DNA from: a virus
Direction: 5' to 3' (one strand)
DNA length: 64,000 nucleotides
Virus record (IMG/VR): IMGVR_UViG_3300023112_000009
Location: 1 to 64,000 of that record
In this document: positions 47,671 through 63,979 of the stretch, in pieces
How the letters are laid out: each line of letters starts with the position of its first letter
Numbering within the stretch: position 1 is the first letter of the stretch
The notes under the pieces: model-generated
Seen by the model: only the letters and a program-made list of their open reading frames with translations
Told to the model about the DNA's origin: nothing
The model's database searches: none
Position numbers and translations under genes: made by a program

Positions 47671-48333
47671 TTACCCCCTGTTGGCCCGATTATTCTTCCG
47701 TGAAGCACGGGCACATTTGTTTTTTGCACGTCTCTGTGCAATGACTTTAGTACGATGAGGGGTGATACGCATGCCAAACTTAGTGCGACTAGGCTGTTTC
47801 GACATTTGTTCTTCAATATACTTGCTAATAAGCTGACCATCTAGGTGATCCATTTCGTGCATAACTGCACGAGCCCAAAAACCAGTAAATGTTTCTTCTT
47901 GAACGTTACCGTCTAGATCAAAATATTGAAGAGTAACGCTCTTGGGGCGGGGAACCAAAGCTCCCATACCGGGTAAAGATAAACACGCTTCACCGTCTTT
48001 GGTGATTGCTTTACTCTTGGCGACAACATTGGGGTTAACATAAACGTTGTTGGTAGGGTTTCCTTCTTCGTTTGTACCATTACGCAGTAAGAAAATCCTA
48101 TGAGGAAAACCAATCTGTACAGCGGCTAATCCTGCCGCCTCTTCGTCTAATGCGTCCAGGATTGCATCCATGTCAATGATCGCCTGCTCATCGGCAGCAG
48201 TGATAGGGATTTGACATGGCTGAGAAGCCATTTCAAGCAACGGCCAACGCTCAGGATCACCTGGAGTGATGATAGGATTGCGTACAGGCTGTTGCGGTTC
48301 TGTGTTCTCGTTATCTTTCATGTTGGTGTTCAT
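47671..48333 (-). CDS. def: peptide deformylase
   Basis: GLAAVQIG, EACLSLPG, HEMDHLDG; basic C-terminal tail. Confidence 0.95.
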   Translation of the reverse strand: MNTNMKDNENTEPQQPVRNPIITPGDPERWPLLEMASQPCQIPITAADEQAIIDMDAILDALDEEAAGLAAVQIGFPHRIFLLRNGTNEEGNPTNNVYVNPNVVAKSKAITKDGEACLSLPGMGALVPRPKSVTLQYFDLDGNVQEETFTGFWARAVMHEMDHLDGQLISKYIEEQMSKQPSRTKFGMRITPHRTKVIAQRRAKNKCARASRKNNRANRG

Positions 48334-49033: not shown

Positions 49034-49840
49034 TTATGTGAAAAGTTCATATCCATGTTCATGCACAAGTATACAGCGTTCTGAGTGAGCCACTAAATTA
49101 TGCTCCGTTTGCTTGATGGTCCATCCATCTTCACTAAGTGCCATGTTAGCACTACCAGTCGTCACAACGGGCTCTATACAAATAGTGTCGCCAGTTTTCA
49201 ATAACTGTCTATCAAATCGTTTCTCTTCGATGGCCTGTTTGATTTTACTATGACCCCTATTGAGGGCACTTGGAATAAAAGGAGGTAGATGTACCTTGTT
49301 GCCAATTTTATGTCCACCCCAACAATCAATGATATTGACCCCATGCTCAGCAGCAGCGGCCTCAGCAGCAAGAACCATCTGTAAAAAAGTACACTCATTC
49401 TTCACAACTGATAGCTGGGCCTCTAGGATTGCCTCCGTGGCCTCAATAAGATCAGTTGCTTCATAAAATCGCTTCTTTTGTATGCCGTTCATGACTCCTG
49501 GCACGATACGAGTTCGTGCAGCATCCACATGCCACCCGTTGTATTCGGTACCTACGTCAATCGTGAGAAGATCTCCTGGCTCTAAAACATAATCACCAGG
49601 AATACCATGCACGACCACGCTATTAGGACTAATACACGCAGTCGCCGGAAAAGGTGACGGATATCCGTCAGGCTGATAATCTTTAAAGGAAGGCGTACAG
49701 CCAGCCTCTCGAATAAAGCTCTCCATTGCGGCATCAATCTCTCGCGTGGTCACTCCAGGCTGGGCAACTTCGAAGCCGCGTTCAATAGCCCCAACGTTCA
49801 CCTTGCCCGCGTATCGCATACTATCTAGTTTGTCGTTCAT
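49034..49840 (-). CDS. map: methionine aminopeptidase type I
   Basis: CISPNSVVVHGIP; TIDVG; DAART; GHKIG..VH; CIEP; AHSE. ATG 49840 preferred. Confidence 0.93.
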   Translation of the reverse strand: MNDKLDSMRYAGKVNVGAIERGFEVAQPGVTTREIDAAMESFIREAGCTPSFKDYQPDGYPSPFPATACISPNSVVVHGIPGDYVLEPGDLLTIDVGTEYNGWHVDAARTRIVPGVMNGIQKKRFYEATDLIEATEAILEAQLSVVKNECTFLQMVLAAEAAAAEHGVNIIDCWGGHKIGNKVHLPPFIPSALNRGHSKIKQAIEEKRFDRQLLKTGDTICIEPVVTTGSANMALSEDGWTIKQTEHNLVAHSERCILVHEHGYELFT

Positions 49841-57539: not shown

Positions 57540-58763
57540 TTATTCCTTAATCCTTTCAGTAACTAGTTTCCAAATCTTGTCCTCGATATCCTTATCATCG
57601 AGTAGTGCGAACACGAAGCCGCCCTCCATGTTGTCCACGTTGGCCTGGATCCACATGGCCTGTTCTTTTCGAGGACGATTTGCACCGACCTCTTCATGCA
57701 TGCGGTTCAGGTTGACATGAGCAGCAGTGAAGATTTCATCGTACATTCCCTGCACCAAGGCACGAATGTCATCAAAGTCGCAAGCGATGCTTGCGGGTAG
57801 TTGCTTGACGGTTACACCGTACTCGTGACCACGGATCAATGCGATTACACCTTTTGGACTCATAGCGTCCAAAAGACGGTGGATACGAACGTACGTTGGA
57901 CTCTTAACCTTCACGCGAAGGCTGCCAATCTTAGCAACATATCCCTCAGTGTTATCTTCGAACGTAGCTTCACGCAAGTCCATTTGATATACTTTAGGTC
58001 TACGGAAGCCACACATTTCTGCGATCTGATCGACACGACGAGGGTGCCACTCGACTCCGTTGTGCTCGAAAATCGCAAGCAATACAAGCTCGCGAGCACC
58101 GTGGTAGTCCACGACGATACGGTTCTCGGGATAGATGATCTCGAAAACAGGAGTACAATCTGTCGGCAGAGCCGTAAGGTCATAACGTGGCAAAGCACAC
58201 ACTGTTTCCTGATAAGTAGAGTATCGTTCAGTGTATTCAGATGCACAACGCGGGTGCGTGGGCTGTCCCTCGCATTCTGGCACCATTTCATTTAGGATAC
58301 GAGTACCCTCAAGAGCCTGATCAGACTCCATGTTACCCGGCGTAGCCAAACGCCACATGGGTACATTTATGGTGTAGACGTGACCTCGCGTGTACATGTC
58401 TGGGTTTTCTTCAAACGAAGGTAACGGATCTCTCGTGTCTGGTCCCTTGGTACCGAAGTATCCAACACCACACGAACCATCCATCTTTTCATAGACTTCA
58501 CAGCCCTCATCCCACGGAAGGTTAGCAACCTTGGTCTCTTCACGTTCGTTCATGTTGAAGAACTTAGAGAACGGTCGAGCTATAACGGTACCGTCAACAT
58601 CGAAGATAATCCCTCTGGCCTGACGATTTACGTCATTCCAGAGGTCTTGAATGTGTGTGTCTTGCGTGTACTTGAAAAGAGTATACGATCCTGACTGGTT
58701 CGCGTTCACGCGACCAGCTTCTACCTCTTTCCAGAGTTTGTTTAATAGGATCGGATCTTTCAT
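57540..58763 (-). CDS. RNA ligase, T4 Rnl1 family
   Basis: LFKY; ARGIIFD; ARPFSKFFN; motif I EKMDGS; FEII.PENRIVV; EGYV; RVKVK..Y. Confidence 0.9.
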   Translation of the reverse strand: MKDPILLNKLWKEVEAGRVNANQSGSYTLFKYTQDTHIQDLWNDVNRQARGIIFDVDGTVIARPFSKFFNMNEREETKVANLPWDEGCEVYEKMDGSCGVGYFGTKGPDTRDPLPSFEENPDMYTRGHVYTINVPMWRLATPGNMESDQALEGTRILNEMVPECEGQPTHPRCASEYTERYSTYQETVCALPRYDLTALPTDCTPVFEIIYPENRIVVDYHGARELVLLAIFEHNGVEWHPRRVDQIAEMCGFRRPKVYQMDLREATFEDNTEGYVAKIGSLRVKVKSPTYVRIHRLLDAMSPKGVIALIRGHEYGVTVKQLPASIACDFDDIRALVQGMYDEIFTAAHVNLNRMHEEVGANRPRKEQAMWIQANVDNMEGGFVFALLDDKDIEDKIWKLVTERIKE

Positions 58764-58776
58764 AATCGCTCCGCGA

Positions 58777-58980
58777 TTAGGTGTTGGGCAACAATGCCCT
58801 GCTGTGCAATGTATTTAGTTGGTATGTATCGTACCAAGCAGAGACTTGGCACATCACTGGACCATTGACGTTTAGTTTATCAACTAGTTCTTGTGCTTCT
58901 TCACGGGTATCAAATATTCCCATGAACGGGAGGCGATGATTGCCATTGTGCCTATCAAAGACAACGTAGACTTCTTTCAT
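58777..58980 (-). CDS. hypothetical protein
   Basis: VYVV...MGIFDTREEA, a common small phage-protein pattern. Confidence 0.55.
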   Translation of the reverse strand: MKEVYVVFDRHNGNHRLPFMGIFDTREEAQELVDKLNVNGPVMCQVSAWYDTYQLNTLHSRALLPNT

Positions 58981-59072
58981 GCAATCAAAATTCCCATAGC
59001 AACGATAGCGGCTACTGCAATTACAGCAGATATAACCTGCATGACTGTCGGCTTCTTGGCTTTTCGGTTCAT
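58977..59072 (-). CDS. 31-aa single-TM peptide (not in ORF track)
   Basis: MNRKAKKPTVMQVISAVIAVAAIVAMGILIA; ATGA overlaps at both ends. Confidence 0.5.
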   Translation of the reverse strand: MNRKAKKPTVMQVISAVIAVAAIVAMGILIA

Positions 59073-59353
59073 GCGAATTTTTCCTGCTCTTTGGCGTCAG
59101 TAATTTTTTGCATAATTACATCTGGACTATCATGACAAACTCTTGATTGATTACCCAACATGATTAGTGATCCACCAAGAATTTGCTTGTGCTTTCCATT
59201 AGCCATAGCACGTCCGTCCGGTCCAAAAGAATGCAACCCAAACGGACCACTATACGGTTCAATTTGCATAATCATATGCGGCCTGATGTATACGTCGTTA
59301 GCGGTATCTTCCTCCGTCATGGAGTCAGCCATTTTGATCTTAATAAAATTCAT
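59069..59353 (-). CDS. hypothetical protein
   Basis: 94 aa; ATGA coupling. Confidence 0.55.
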   Translation of the reverse strand: MNFIKIKMADSMTEEDTANDVYIRPHMIMQIEPYSGPFGLHSFGPDGRAMANGKHKQILGGSLIMLGNQSRVCHDSPDVIMQKITDAKEQEKFA

Positions 59354-59634
59354 TTCTTCGTTCTACGCTTAGGTTTCGCTTCTGGTTCTTCTTCTTCTAC
59401 AGGATCAGGGTCAAGCCATTCAATAGCCCCCTTTCCCTCGTGGCCATGAACAGCCACGAATGTTTTCATGTTGTCATAAACACTCACGGTTCCCATGTTG
59501 GAAATCCACGAATGAACTACCTTTCCATTAGACAGTTCCACGCCTTCACCCACAACGCCCGTACCGCTGACGCCTGAAACGTCTTCGGTACGGACAAAGT
59601 GAAAGCGACGGATGCCGGGTTTACTATTGCTCAT
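59350..59634 (-). CDS. conserved hypothetical phage protein
   Basis: RRF..VR.EDVSGVSGTGVV.EGV..NG.V..W...VHGHEG, a motif I recall from actinobacterial/phage hypotheticals (unverified). Confidence 0.6.
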   Translation of the reverse strand: MSNSKPGIRRFHFVRTEDVSGVSGTGVVGEGVELSNGKVVHSWISNMGTVSVYDNMKTFVAVHGHEGKGAIEWLDPDPVEEEEPEAKPKRRTKK

Positions 59635-59636
59635 AA

Positions 59637-60908
59637 TTAAAATCCAGCACCCTTAAGTGCCTTGGCTCTTGCACGCTCCATGTTTTGAGCGATCTTTTGA
59701 CCATCCTTTAGGTGGGCGAACTCGTGACCTCGAACCTGCCGGATAACTCCAGCAGCTTTCAGCAACCTGTCGCCCTGCTCGTACGGGTCGTTTGCGTGCA
59801 GCGGACCTCTCCCCCTCGCGTCTGCCTTAGAAGCAAGAACAACACGAGAAAGCATTTGGTCTCCCTGTACAGCAAGCAGTCGCATAAGCAGACGCACCTT
59901 CTTCACGGGCTTTAAATCATCAAATCTATGGACGTTCAAGTGGTCCTTTGCCGTCACCGCCGCAACCTTGCGATGCGTGTTCGGTACGCGGAGCCTGTCG
60001 CACATGTCGTGAACAAGCGGCACACCGAGTGCTTCGTGGTTGTAATGATGTGGCAAATTGTCATCGTCCGTAACAGCCTTACCCAAATCGTGTGTAAGTG
60101 CAGCGAACATCGTCTCATCGTCCGCACCAAGCTCGGCAGCCCGGTCCACGACCTCAAGAGTGTGTACGTATGCATCACCTTCGGGATGGTACTTCTCGGG
60201 CTGAGTACGCCCCTGTAGAGCGTCTATTTCCGGAAGGACAACCTCTAGGGCACCCAATTTGTCTAAAGCTTCAAAGAACAGCGACGGCTTCGGCGTACGG
60301 AGTGCCTTTTCAAGCTCACCCCACAGACGCTCGCCCGGTAGCGTGATTAGCTCAGGTAAAACAACCTGTGCTACCTCAACAAGCTCATCAGATAGTACCA
60401 TGCCCAATTGGGCTGCGAACCTTGCGGCACGCAGTACACGCAACGGATCTTCTCCGAAGTGTGCTCCAACAGGACGCAGTACACCATCAGCTAGGTCTCT
60501 GGCTCCACGGAACGGGTCAAAGACCTTACCCGTGAAGGGATCCATAGCCATAGCGTTTATCGTGAGATCTCGACGTTGAAGGTCTTGTTCAAGCGTAACG
60601 TCTTCCGTTTGGCAATCGAATCCCTTGTAGCCTTGACCATCGTCTGTTTTTTGCTCAGTTCTAGCAAGGGCTACCTCAACGTCGCCGTGATCGGTGACGA
60701 TTTTCCATACCGGAAAGCTGTCGCCAACAAGTTCACCGTGCTTATGTAGCAGGCGGCAAAGCTCGTTAGAAGCACCCACAACCATAACGTCCACGTCTTT
60801 GGGCTGTCGGCCCAAAAGCATGTCGCGTACAAACCCTCCTACAACGAAGGGCGTACCGCCAGCGTCAACGATCAACTGGCATAGGTCTAGGTGTTTTTGA
60901 CGTAGCAT
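59637..60908 (-). CDS. cca: CCA-adding tRNA nucleotidyltransferase with HD phosphatase domain
   Basis: VGGFVRD..DVDV; EVALARTE; DLQRRDLTINAMA; EDPLRVLRAARF; ERLW.E; HPEGD..HT; HDLGK. Confidence 0.93.
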   Translation of the reverse strand: MLRQKHLDLCQLIVDAGGTPFVVGGFVRDMLLGRQPKDVDVMVVGASNELCRLLHKHGELVGDSFPVWKIVTDHGDVEVALARTEQKTDDGQGYKGFDCQTEDVTLEQDLQRRDLTINAMAMDPFTGKVFDPFRGARDLADGVLRPVGAHFGEDPLRVLRAARFAAQLGMVLSDELVEVAQVVLPELITLPGERLWGELEKALRTPKPSLFFEALDKLGALEVVLPEIDALQGRTQPEKYHPEGDAYVHTLEVVDRAAELGADDETMFAALTHDLGKAVTDDDNLPHHYNHEALGVPLVHDMCDRLRVPNTHRKVAAVTAKDHLNVHRFDDLKPVKKVRLLMRLLAVQGDQMLSRVVLASKADARGRGPLHANDPYEQGDRLLKAAGVIRQVRGHEFAHLKDGQKIAQNMERARAKALKGAGF

Positions 60909-61195
60909 TATTCTTTTTTAAAGCGATTGCATTCTTCGATCTTGGAAACCAGGATCGGAGGAGAGTCCTTGACATTCTCAGGTCTCCAGAAGCAAATTGT
61001 CTTTACTCTTTCGTGTTCAATTACGGTGTCGATTACTTCTGGAGTCTGTTGTGACTCATTAAAGATATCGTATGTGTCTTCTTGTTTTTCGTTCGGTGAC
61101 TCATATGAGACACGTTCCTGTTCGGTCTCTTTTACGCAAATGCCAAACTTGCAGGTCCAGCACTTACTTTCTTCGGCCTTAAGTTCGTCATTCAT
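60908..61195 (-). CDS. hypothetical Cys-containing protein
   Basis: CWTC..C...C...C; TAATG coupling. Confidence 0.55.
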   Translation of the reverse strand: MNDELKAEESKCWTCKFGICVKETEQERVSYESPNEKQEDTYDIFNESQQTPEVIDTVIEHERVKTICFWRPENVKDSPPILVSKIEECNRFKKE

Positions 61196-61629
61196 GCTTG
61201 AAAAATAGACATATCAGTCCACTCGGTTTCGTCGTCGTGAGGTTGGTACTTGTTGATCTGCTTTCGTAGCGTTGCCAAAGGAACACCATGAACGTTACGC
61301 TCAAAGAGCACTTCGGGATCCCAGGGGCCAGGGGTGCGTAGCACTTCTACAGTGTACCCGTATTTCTCAGCCATGTCAAGATAAGGTTTCATTTCCCATC
61401 GAGTCATGCTAGTGTTAGCCACCACGACCAACTCTACATCAAAATTACACGCAGTCCTGACGTTCGTTTGGTTCCAGGAATGAGCGAGCCCCAATTTGGA
61501 GGGGTCGAAGTCATATGGACCTTTTCTCTCCCAGAACTTGTCGGTTTCAAAGATTTCGCCACCGACAGCCTTGGCGATTGTGCTTTTGCCGCTTCCTGAC
61601 GGGCCTCGTAGTAGGACTAGTCTCTTCAT
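61192..61629 (-). CDS. AAA_33/N4BP2-like P-loop polynucleotide kinase
   Basis: LLRGPSGSGKST; AH.WNQ; VVVANT; ERNVHGVP. ATG 61629 follows TATAAT-N6. Confidence 0.8.
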   Translation of the reverse strand: MKRLVLLRGPSGSGKSTIAKAVGGEIFETDKFWERKGPYDFDPSKLGLAHSWNQTNVRTACNFDVELVVVANTSMTRWEMKPYLDMAEKYGYTVEVLRTPGPWDPEVLFERNVHGVPLATLRKQINKYQPHDDETEWTDMSIFQA

Positions 61630-61635
61630 GCTACC

Positions 61636-61674
61636 ATTATACACCAGAAGCGGAGCAAGTCAAGCTCCGCTTCT
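61636..61674 (-). promoter_or_regulatory. promoter TTGACT-N16-TATAAT whose -35 lies in the loop of an 11-bp hairpin; leaderless
   Basis: AGAAGCGGAGC-TTGACTT-GCTCCGCTTCT-ggtg-TATAAT-ggtagc-ATG; on the + strand the hairpin is followed by a T-run. Confidence 0.65.
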
Positions 61675-63327: not shown

Positions 63328-63414
63328 TGGTACAGGAAGGGGGACTCGAACCCCCACACCATTTCTGATACGAGATCCTAAATCTCGTGCGGCTACCAAT
63401 TACGCCATTCCTGC
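63328..63414 (-). tRNA. tRNA-Leu (anticodon TAG), CCA encoded
   Basis: GCAGGAA/TTCCTGT acceptor, CGAGA-TTTAGGA-TCTCG anticodon arm, long V-arm, GGGGG-TTCGAGT-CCCCC T-arm, ACCA. Confidence 0.93.
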
Positions 63415-63890: not shown

Positions 63891-63979
63891 TGGTGGGAGT
63901 GGTAGGATTTGAACCCACGACGGAGCTTTCGCTCATCCGGTTAAAAGCCGGGTATCTTCGGCCACTTGATTACACTCCC
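63891..63979 (-). tRNA. tRNA with Lys (TTT) anticodon and a non-canonical long variable arm, CCA encoded
   Basis: GGGAGTG/CACTCCC acceptor; ATC-AAGTGGCCGAA-GAT D-arm; CCGG-CTTTTAA-CCGG anticodon arm; GAGC-GAAA-GCTC V-arm; GTGGG-TTCAAAT-CCTAC T-arm; ACCA. Confidence 0.88.

Follow-up and report, generated by a model that had tools for sequence, protein, structure and literature searches.

The DNA examined here, 64,000 nucleotides (nt) of IMG/VR virus record IMGVR_UViG_3300023112_000009 and hereafter called the window, forms the opening 64 kb of one contig of 125,609 bp from an uncultured marine phage, and near its end it carries a transfer RNA (tRNA) gene that we read as a tRNA-Lys(UUU) built on the body of a class II tRNA. 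The gene occupies 63891..63979 on the minus strand and is 89 nt long including an encoded CCA (ARAGORN call Lys(ttt)); the Rfam tRNA model RF00005 matches it at 55.4 bits (gathering score 29), over 71 of 71 model positions (E = 1e-10 in a 2-kb search and 3.2e-09 across the whole window). Long variable arms in bacteria are held to be limited to the tRNAs for leucine, serine, tyrosine and selenocysteine (PMC7609411). The parts of the gene are as follows.

63973..63979, minus strand: 5' strand of the acceptor stem, GGGAGUG, pairing with CACUCCC at 63895-63901 (7 of 7 bp)
63954..63970, minus strand: D-arm, AUC-AAGUGGCCGAA-GAU, a 3-bp stem with an A13.A22 mismatch and a Ser/Tyr-type loop
63936..63952, minus strand: anticodon arm, CCCGG-CUUUUAA-CCGGA, with C27.A43 and the UUU anticodon at 63943-63945
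63919..63935, minus strand: variable region of 17 nt, U-GAGC-GAAA-GCUC-CGUC, with a 4-bp hairpin (63923-63934), a GAAA tetraloop and a 4-nt spacer, CGUC
63902..63918, minus strand: T-arm, GUGGG-UUCAAAU-CCUAC
63891..63901, minus strand: 3' strand of the acceptor stem, CACUCCC (63895-63901), A73 (63894) and CCA (63891-63893)

A lysine anticodon on a class II body

The initial annotation had described an 89-nt cloverleaf with a CUUUUAA loop, A73 and CCA, a 17-nt variable region GAGC-GAAA-GCUC, a 3-bp D-stem with a Tyr/Ser-like loop and a C27.A43 mismatch; ARAGORN, Rfam and our reading of the minus strand recover all of these, and RNAfold predicts the arm hairpin. The anticodon loop, of 7 nt with U33 and A37, has the pattern of bacterial tRNA-Lys, while the body lacks the 4-5-nt variable loop and 4-bp D-stem of the class I plan to which bacterial tRNA-Lys belongs. 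It agrees instead with the class II plan of the Tyr type in its long variable arm, 3-bp D-stem and A73, and departs from that type in having UUU rather than GUA as its anticodon. The D-loop, AGUGGCCGA, reads A14 G15 U16 G18 G19 C C G A. RNAfold gives the whole molecule -32.5 kcal/mol (z = -3.07; 3 of 200 shuffles fold equally well) and recovers the acceptor, T and variable-arm hairpins, with the D and anticodon region mispaired.

This is a real tRNA gene. The initial annotation had allowed that the extra arm might prove to be an assembly error or an intron, and this can be set aside because an independent 1892-nt contig spanning 63564-64000, from a run not flagged as a possible source of this DNA, shows 0 differences from the window and 18 more distinct homologues keep the arm. 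None of the 24 listed runs is an RNA dataset with this stretch, and runs X9 and X10 gave no sequence covering it.

A widespread family in phage tRNA arrays

Relatives of the phage were gathered by way of its CCA-adding enzyme, giving 13 partial viral loci in which that enzyme is 38-72% identical; these loci together with the window's own genome form what we call the clade sample (loci are designated by L numbers). Among the 13 loci, L003 carries long-armed versions of Lys(UUU), Lys(CUU) and Asn(GUU), L006 has a long-armed Lys(UUU), L010 a long-armed Lys(CUU) and L008 a long-armed Thr(UGU). This genome and L003, whose CCA-adding enzymes are 65% identical, share the gene order Lys(CUU)-Arg(UCU)-Lys(UUU)...Leu(UAG). 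Each of the three Lys(UUU) genes in the clade sample is long-armed, and no short-armed Lys(UUU) was found in this genome and the 13 partial loci.

A motif scan of viral contigs returned at least 119 loci, with long-armed Lys(UUU) in at least 13 loci and on contigs of up to 424 kb, and all scans pooled hold at least 19 distinct long-armed Lys(UUU) sequences. The search for the same body among phage tRNAs that the initial annotation had recommended was fruitful, for lysine and, as described below, for other anticodons. Searches keyed to the window tRNA itself were less productive: blastn against 50,697 phage records gave 4 weak records and no true homologue, and an exact 25-nt pattern from the T-arm and acceptor had no match in the viral contigs.

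The statistics that follow refer to the 19 distinct Lys(UUU) sequences among the matches listed, the window tRNA included, with pairs counted by a purpose-made segment parser (MAFFT misaligned the 5' ends of 16 tRNAs). Pairing is nearly perfect in the acceptor stems, where 132 of 133 cells are paired by 3-6 pair types per position, and complete in the T-stems (95/95). In the anticodon stems 88 of 95 cells are paired, the 7 exceptions all lying at 27:43 (G.A in six members, C.A in one); since this pair is non-standard in 7/19 members, the C27.A43 of the window tRNA is a family trait. Compensated base changes of this kind show that selection acts on a tRNA that folds and functions. In 17/19 members the variable region folds into a 2-4-bp hairpin; a GNRA tetraloop caps it in 14/19, and a 4-nt unpaired tail separates it from the T-stem in 14/19; the 1-nt and 4-nt flanks of the arm are fixed in 14/19. 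Arm loops include GAAA, GCAA, GUAA and non-GNRA forms, and the discriminator is A73 in 14 members and U73 in 5.

Cultured phages carry such genes too. The same long-armed architecture is found in the tRNA-Lys(ttt) of Rhodobacter phage RcXuper (OP186293.1, 14350-14437, 88 nt) and the tRNA-Lys of Xanthomonas phage XacN1 (AP018399.1, 30563-30651, 87-89 nt), and Pseudomonas phage phiKZ has a long-armed tRNA-Asn, PHIKZ_t02 (NC_004629.1, 269557-269645; L411:992-1078; 87-89 nt), with the variable region U GGC GAAA GCC CACC, U1-A72 and G73. Further GenBank phages with such genes are Mesorhizobium Cp1R7A-A1, Ruegeria vB_RpoS-V10, Roseobacter DSS3P8 and Xanthomonas X1 and BUDD, and Cellulophaga phage phi4:1 has a long-armed gene labelled 'tRNA-OTHER'. 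The cultured-phage homologues differ from the window tRNA in their acceptor stems and in their hosts (Rhodobacter, Xanthomonas, Pseudomonas), and were missed by blastn with the window tRNA.

The matches examined in cellular genomes included no counterpart. None of the 120 matches listed from a scan of species genomes is a tRNA, and among 401 genomes of one bacterial class (that of a Qipengyuania genome) there were 4 matches, none of them a tRNA-Lys, the 4 matching genomes being no more than a reversed-pattern control produced. The initial annotation had conceded that its argument would fall if long-armed tRNA-Lys were common in the host lineage; nothing of the kind was seen in those 120 matches and 401 genomes. 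We conclude that the long-armed tRNA-Lys(UUU) is a conserved and widespread family in the tRNA arrays of large phages.

The same body with other anticodons

A pattern that ignores the anticodon, is fixed by the D-arm and T-arm and admits short arms only was scanned to completion and found 58 loci, 52 of them with a tRNA over the match, which reduce to 43 distinct sequences:

Lys(UUU), 12 distinct sequences
Cys(GCA), 7 distinct sequences
Ser, 4 distinct sequences
Lys(CUU), 3 distinct sequences
His(GUG), 3 distinct sequences
Asn(GUU), 3 distinct sequences
Thr(UGU), 3 distinct sequences
Tyr, 3 distinct sequences
Thr(CGU), 1 distinct sequence
Met(CAU), 1 distinct sequence
Leu, 1 distinct sequence
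odd call, 1 distinct sequence
chance class I Asp, 1 distinct sequence

The commonest identity on this long-armed body is thus lysine, ahead of tyrosine, and of its 33 non-canonical tRNAs 22 are for lysine, asparagine or threonine and 11 for cysteine, histidine or methionine. The clade sample holds 88 tRNAs, or 61 once those for leucine, serine and tyrosine are removed; among these 61 all nine long-armed tRNAs (9/9) are for lysine, asparagine, threonine or isoleucine, that is, all are readers of ANN codons, as against 22 of the 52 short-armed ones.

Short and long tRNAs of the same amino acid recur side by side (Lys(UUU) in L058, L082 and L085; Cys in L134 and L247; His in L211), mostly with the same anticodon; in XacN1 (L412) a long Lys(CUU) stands beside a short Lys(UUU). 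Long-armed tRNA-Asn comes in different body types, with a Ser/Tyr-type D-loop and 4-nt tail in the window's genome, four bases before the GG in L003 and a 1-nt tail in L020, and the presence of a long arm on at least two to three Asn body types suggests that it was gained repeatedly.

Several further departures from the usual arm classes were observed. Two Ile(UAU) tRNAs of 92-94 nt (L003:1056-1147 and L071:517-610) have a D-arm of class I type (4 bp, small loop) and also a long variable region, which makes a third way for an ANN reader to bear a long arm. In L382 a Leu(UAA) tRNA of 89 nt has a Ser/Tyr-type D-arm and a 4-nt spacer, the 'wrong' long-armed body for leucine, and four distinct tRNA-Ser genes (L146, L213, L242 and L245), found in 8 loci, have an ACU anticodon with a wobble A. 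The opposite change is also seen: the window's own genome encodes at 67413-67489 (minus strand) a short-armed tRNA-Leu(UAA), with similar genes in L001, L003, L006, L008, L009, L030 and L071. These short-armed Leu tRNAs are 76-78 nt long and keep the Leu-type D-loop AAUUGGCA, U48 and A73; they are common in this clade, and over all collected loci distinct Leu tRNAs number 20 short and 18 long.

Amino acid identity

If the long-armed tRNAs were all charged alike, there would be no need for each to carry the discriminator base proper to its own anticodon; a match of that sort is what we find. In the collected loci, from which tRNAs lacking a plain 7-bp acceptor in the ARAGORN drawing were dropped, asparagine tRNAs have G73 whether long-armed (4/4) or short-armed (6/6), cysteine tRNAs have U73 (4/4 and 6/6) and histidine tRNAs have C73 (2/2 and 4/4); in the complete body-anchored scan the long-armed versions give 3/3, 7/7 and 3/3, respectively. 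Long-armed tRNA-Asn mostly begins with U1-A72 (this genome, L003, L020, L403, phiKZ), and those of L239 and L399 start with G1-C72. The discriminator follows the anticodon and not the body; this is the best evidence on identity and favours cognate charging over mischarging of the allo-tRNA kind.

The window tRNA is also a poor fit to the other class II identities. The D-loop of tRNA-Leu has four bases ahead of the conserved GG. The window tRNA has three, together with G15 and C48, and E. coli leucyl-tRNA synthetase (LeuRS) needs A15-U48 and A20a (PMC9976931). It has A73 and not the G73 of tRNA-Ser, and its spacer is the 4-nt CGUC where the phage Ser tRNAs found have 1 nt. With a 7-bp acceptor and a 5-bp T-stem it also lacks the 8/4 or 9/3 architecture of allo-tRNAs. 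Its A73 is compatible with lysyl-tRNA synthetase (LysRS), and also with LeuRS and the tyrosyl enzyme (TyrRS). Lysine identity resides in the anticodon and A73, and asparagine identity in the anticodon and G73 (PMC9976931).

Judged by these sequence marks, the window tRNA is probably charged with lysine. Of the two readings offered by the initial annotation, that of an allo-tRNA-like molecule charged with another amino acid has against it the 7/5 architecture, the non-Leu D-loop, the lack of G73 and the sister tRNAs with G73 (Asn), U73 (Cys) and C73 (His). That of a lysine tRNA serving escape from defence holds up for its lysine identity, through the tracking of the discriminator, the shared array position and the 3/3 long-armed Lys(UUU) genes of the clade; resistance to nucleases is the predicted part of it.

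The tRNA array and its neighbours

The genome has a total of 15 tRNA genes, 14 of them in one minus-strand array at 63328-69835, and ARAGORN finds two tRNA genes inside the window, Leu(UAG) and Lys(UUU), both on the minus strand. Directly downstream of the array in the direction of transcription, 2-6 kb from Lys(UUU), lie the genes for an RNA ligase, a CCA-adding enzyme and a kinase:

57540..58763, minus strand: T4 Rnl1-type RNA ligase (PHROG 562 at 1.1e-51; Pfam RNA_lig_T4_1, 58 bits)
59637..60908, minus strand: CCA-adding tRNA nucleotidyltransferase with an HD domain (PHROG 2244 at 1.1e-108; Pfam PolyA_pol, PolyA_pol_RNAbd and HD)
61192..61644, minus strand: small P-loop kinase like the kinase domain of polynucleotide kinase (PHROG 2071, PHROG 505 at 2e-08; Pfam AAA_33)
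63328..63414, minus strand: tRNA-Leu(UAG), canonical long-armed, 87 nt, the array's last gene inside the window

Small open reading frames (ORFs) of no assigned function are interspersed in this block (57540-61644). Phage T4 reportedly mends tRNA-Lys cut by PrrC using a comparable tool set. PMC2610378 mentions PrrC and repair. Pfam (E <= 1e-5) found no aminoacyl-tRNA synthetase domain in 141 of the genome's 143 ORFs of at least 90 amino acids, and Pfam scans of the same 141/143 ORFs found no tRNA-modifying enzyme that might act as a partner. The ORFs between the tRNA genes, those beside the long-armed Asn gene included, have no PHROG match at 1e-3. Lysine codons (AAA and AAG) make up 57 per 1000 codons of the phage ORFs (5.7%), and the long-armed gene is the genome's sole Lys(UUU) gene.

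Past the end of the window, at 67579-67667 on the minus strand (L372:3579-3667), the same genome has a second long-armed tRNA, Asn(GUU). This tRNA is 89 nt long, has U1-A72 and G73, and bears a variable arm (C GAGA GAAA UCUC CAUC) near-identical to that of the Lys tRNA; its anticodon loop, CCGUUAA, has C33 instead of the near-universal U33. The Lys(CUU) call at 64115-64194 (minus strand, 80 nt) has 3 non-standard acceptor pairs; it is similar to the short Lys(CUU) of L001, which is intact, and may be either a gene in decay or a miscall.

As to the phage itself, its closest matches among known phages are about 30-35% identical (a DnaE-like polymerase and a ribonucleotide reductase), and seawater metagenome runs contain the contig sequence. 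Elsewhere in the window are genes for a peptide deformylase (47671-48333, minus strand) and a methionine-aminopeptidase-like M24 peptidase (49034-49840, minus strand), and a large block of glycosyltransferase, methyltransferase and sugar-nucleotide genes at about 8-32 kb.

Possible escape from host tRNases

What might a phage gain from placing a lysine anticodon on such a body? In the mechanism that we propose, the phage tRNA-Lys would read AAA and AAG and would be charged with lysine by the host LysRS through its UUU anticodon and A73. Its body would have been remodelled to the class II plan, with a Ser/Tyr-type D-arm, a short GNRA-capped arm and four unpaired bases before the T-stem, and the altered D-loop and bulky arm would make it a poor substrate for tRNases of the PARIS AriB type, so that the phage could keep decoding lysine codons after the host's tRNA-Lys had been destroyed. 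A poor AriB-type substrate is to be expected because such enzymes read the anticodon stem-loop together with the D-loop or elbow.

The known behaviour of AriB gives this proposal its shape. The tRNAs that AriB depletes are Lys(UUU), Asn(GUU) and Thr(UGU) and, to a minor extent, Thr(CGU). Its cut falls between positions 40 and 41; it reads U36-AAUC-A41, while a second subunit contacts U16-U17 of the D-loop; and phage T5 escapes through Lys, Thr and Asn variants of its own, all three being needed at once (PMC12409363). A bacterial Schlafen also cleaves the anticodon arm of tRNA-Lys(UUU) (PMC13056530). In the window tRNA the long arm exits the core at position 44, three bases from the AriB cut, and at the AriB sites it has C39 and G41 where E. 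coli tRNA-Lys, from a species that may not be the host, has U39 and A41 (PMC12409363). We infer escape because lysine, threonine and asparagine tRNAs are the AriB targets and because repair genes lie nearby. The bias of long arms in the clade towards ANN readers (9/9, against 22/52 among short-armed tRNAs; Fisher one-sided p = 0.0012) speaks for it as well.

We give about even credence to the combined view that this is a working phage tRNA-Lys with a class II body whose most likely benefit is escape from host immune tRNases. The escape role of the long arm, taken by itself, is a weaker claim than lysine charging and one that we advance tentatively, placing it a little below an even chance. More speculative, and on the whole unlikely, is the generalization that change of shape is a common phage counter-defence, in which the Lys, Asn and Thr identities, and with them Cys, His and Met, are moved to a long-armed body that synthetases and ribosomes would accept and that tRNases could not dock on, the GNRA arm perhaps serving also as a mark of 'self' by which phage enzymes would distinguish phage tRNAs from those of the host.

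Several observations weigh against escape and against exclusive charging with lysine. The overlap with the AriB targets is partial, given that 11/33 of the non-canonical long-armed tRNAs are for Cys, His or Met, and the Fisher test on ANN readers in the clade ignores shared ancestry. Of 16 members, 10 retain U36-A-A-U39-C40, the sequence recognized by AriB in E. coli, and the hairpin is lost in 2/19 Lys(UUU) members, with several relatives having an unpaired variable region of 11-12 nt; the eroded arms of some members look like drift. With respect to charging, class II synthetases approach from the variable-loop side and the arm could hinder LysRS, and U73 is found in 5/19 members of the Lys(UUU) family. 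Some tyrosylation also might occur, A73 and U35 being the main tyrosine identity marks (PMC9976931).

The main rival to escape is that the arm is a neutral relic: the lysine decoder would descend from a duplicated Ser- or Tyr-type phage tRNA and would keep the arm for class II folding, with no benefit in defence. Such a descent is made credible by the D-arm GAGNGGNCGAAGG, which is identical in many phage tRNA-Ser (Ser(GCU) in 66/111 among the matches listed), and a switch of identity would be easy because it is mainly the anticodon and discriminator that the Lys, Asn, Cys, Thr and Met synthetases recognize (PMC9976931). The mirror case of a short-armed tRNA-Leu charged by the same LeuRS (PMC6614811) points the same way, as do the eroded arms just mentioned and the existence of Cys, His and Met versions, which are not main AriB targets. 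Yet mere inheritance sits less well with long arms on at least two to three Asn body types, with their confinement in the clade to ANN readers (9/9), with a GNRA cap kept in 14/19 members despite free covariation of the stem, and with the repeated occurrence of short and long isodecoders as neighbours (Lys in L058, L082 and L085; Cys in L134; His in L211). We consider a neutral relic rather unlikely.

The same coexistence of short and long isodecoders of one anticodon, together with the GNRA tetraloop and the fixed 1-nt and 4-nt flanks (14/19 each), would suit a third account, in which the arm is a handle that docks a phage or host factor or marks the phage's 'own' tRNAs, or in which the molecule is a competitive inhibitor of a tRNase rather than a decoder. 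Candidate partners would be a repair, processing or modification enzyme or a non-ribosomal user of aminoacyl-tRNA, and tRNA repair and CCA genes do adjoin the array. There is precedent for the elements of this idea: Belukhina et al. raise competitive inhibition of AriB by viral tRNAs (PMC12409363), and phage Mom uses Gly-tRNA outside translation (PMC13219725). Against it, no partner gene was identified in the Pfam scans, the loop varies (GAAA, GCAA, GUAA and non-GNRA), and the clade sample has no short-armed Lys(UUU), so that the window gene presumably must decode; we regard this account as improbable.

That TyrRS, or with less likelihood the seryl enzyme (SerRS) or LeuRS, loads the tRNA, so that AAA and AAG are partly misread, is very improbable. 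The Tyr-like geometry of the arm combined with A73 and U35 (PMC9976931) would invite it, and allo-tRNAs, which are long-armed with class I anticodons, can insert serine or alanine (PMC5389517). The sister tRNAs, however, carry the discriminators of their own anticodons, which would be superfluous if all shared a Tyr, Ser or Leu identity, and the G15/C48 D-loop with three bases before the GG, the absence of G73, the 4-nt spacer and the 7/5 architecture are all at odds with it. Misreading would moreover damage the phage's own proteome, because lysine codons are abundant and the Lys(UUU) gene is single. Bacterial tRNA introns are not known to sit in the variable region. An artefact or dead gene, whether an assembly error, an unexcised insertion or a pseudogene, has next to no chance, since an identical independent contig, intact stems, an encoded CCA, compensatory changes in 18 arm-bearing homologues and the position of the arm away from the intron site outweigh the degenerate acceptor stem of the neighbouring Lys(CUU) call, which suggests that the array is not wholly intact.

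Escape from tRNases by way of the long arm is directly testable because cultured phages carry such tRNAs (RcXuper, XacN1 and the Ruegeria phages, with phiKZ for asparagine). The phage family breaks the rule on long variable arms for lysine, and its sister families do so for asparagine, threonine, cysteine, histidine and methionine. If these tRNAs are charged normally, then LysRS, the Asn, Cys and His synthetases (AsnRS, CysRS and HisRS) and the ribosome tolerate a long arm, which would bear on the rules of tRNA identity and would give tRNA engineering scaffolds that already exist. An arm that blocks immune tRNases, if that is what it does, would be a new escape route, known phage tRNA escape being by point changes in the anticodon stem-loop. 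The family also accounts for some of the 'tRNA-OTHER' or mismatched-isotype calls in phage annotation.

Comparison with known systems

Long-armed phage Lys tRNAs are annotated in GenBank without comment and have apparently gone undiscussed. We found no description of a long-armed phage tRNA-Lys in the main texts of the openly available literature, and no paper remarking on the architecture of the phiKZ tRNA-Asn; passages of PMC7609411, PMC5389517 and PMC11464382 describe no long-armed phage tRNA-Lys.

Four known systems invite comparison. In its plan, the window tRNA resembles bacterial tRNA-Tyr, here taken from E. coli: both have a 3-bp D-stem, three bases before the GG, A73 and U35, and in both a short variable hairpin precedes 3-4 unpaired bases. 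It differs in having UUU in place of the GUA anticodon, and the sisters of its body have non-Tyr discriminators.

In its possible role, the nearest relative is the tRNA-Lys(UUU) of phage T5, which is resistant to AriB (PMC11464382, PMC12409363). It too is a phage UUU tRNA within an array and it too deviates from the E. coli tRNA at 39, 41 and in the D-loop; moreover, the Lys/Thr/Asn trio that T5 requires is the trio that is long-armed in this phage clade (PMC12409363). The T5 tRNA achieves its deviation by the point substitutions U39A, A41C and U16C, and in the two papers no long arm is described and the word 'variable' is absent, whereas the window tRNA has a 17-nt arm. Resistance is demonstrated for the T5 tRNA and inferred for that of the window.

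The allo-tRNAs of Mukai et al. (2017, PMC5389517) likewise join a long arm to anticodons of amino acids whose tRNAs are normally short-armed. They are mainly bacterial, have 8/4 or 9/3 helices, a long D-stem with a tetraloop and mostly G73 or U73, and insert serine or alanine; the window tRNA, in contrast, is phage-borne, has a 7/5 architecture and A73, and bears cognate-looking identity marks. Finally, the short-armed type I tRNA-Leu of Streptomyces coelicolor (Fan et al. 2019, PMC6614811) is the mirror case, in which one synthetase takes both arm classes: there the arm has been lost from a class II identity, and in the window tRNA an arm is present on a class I identity.

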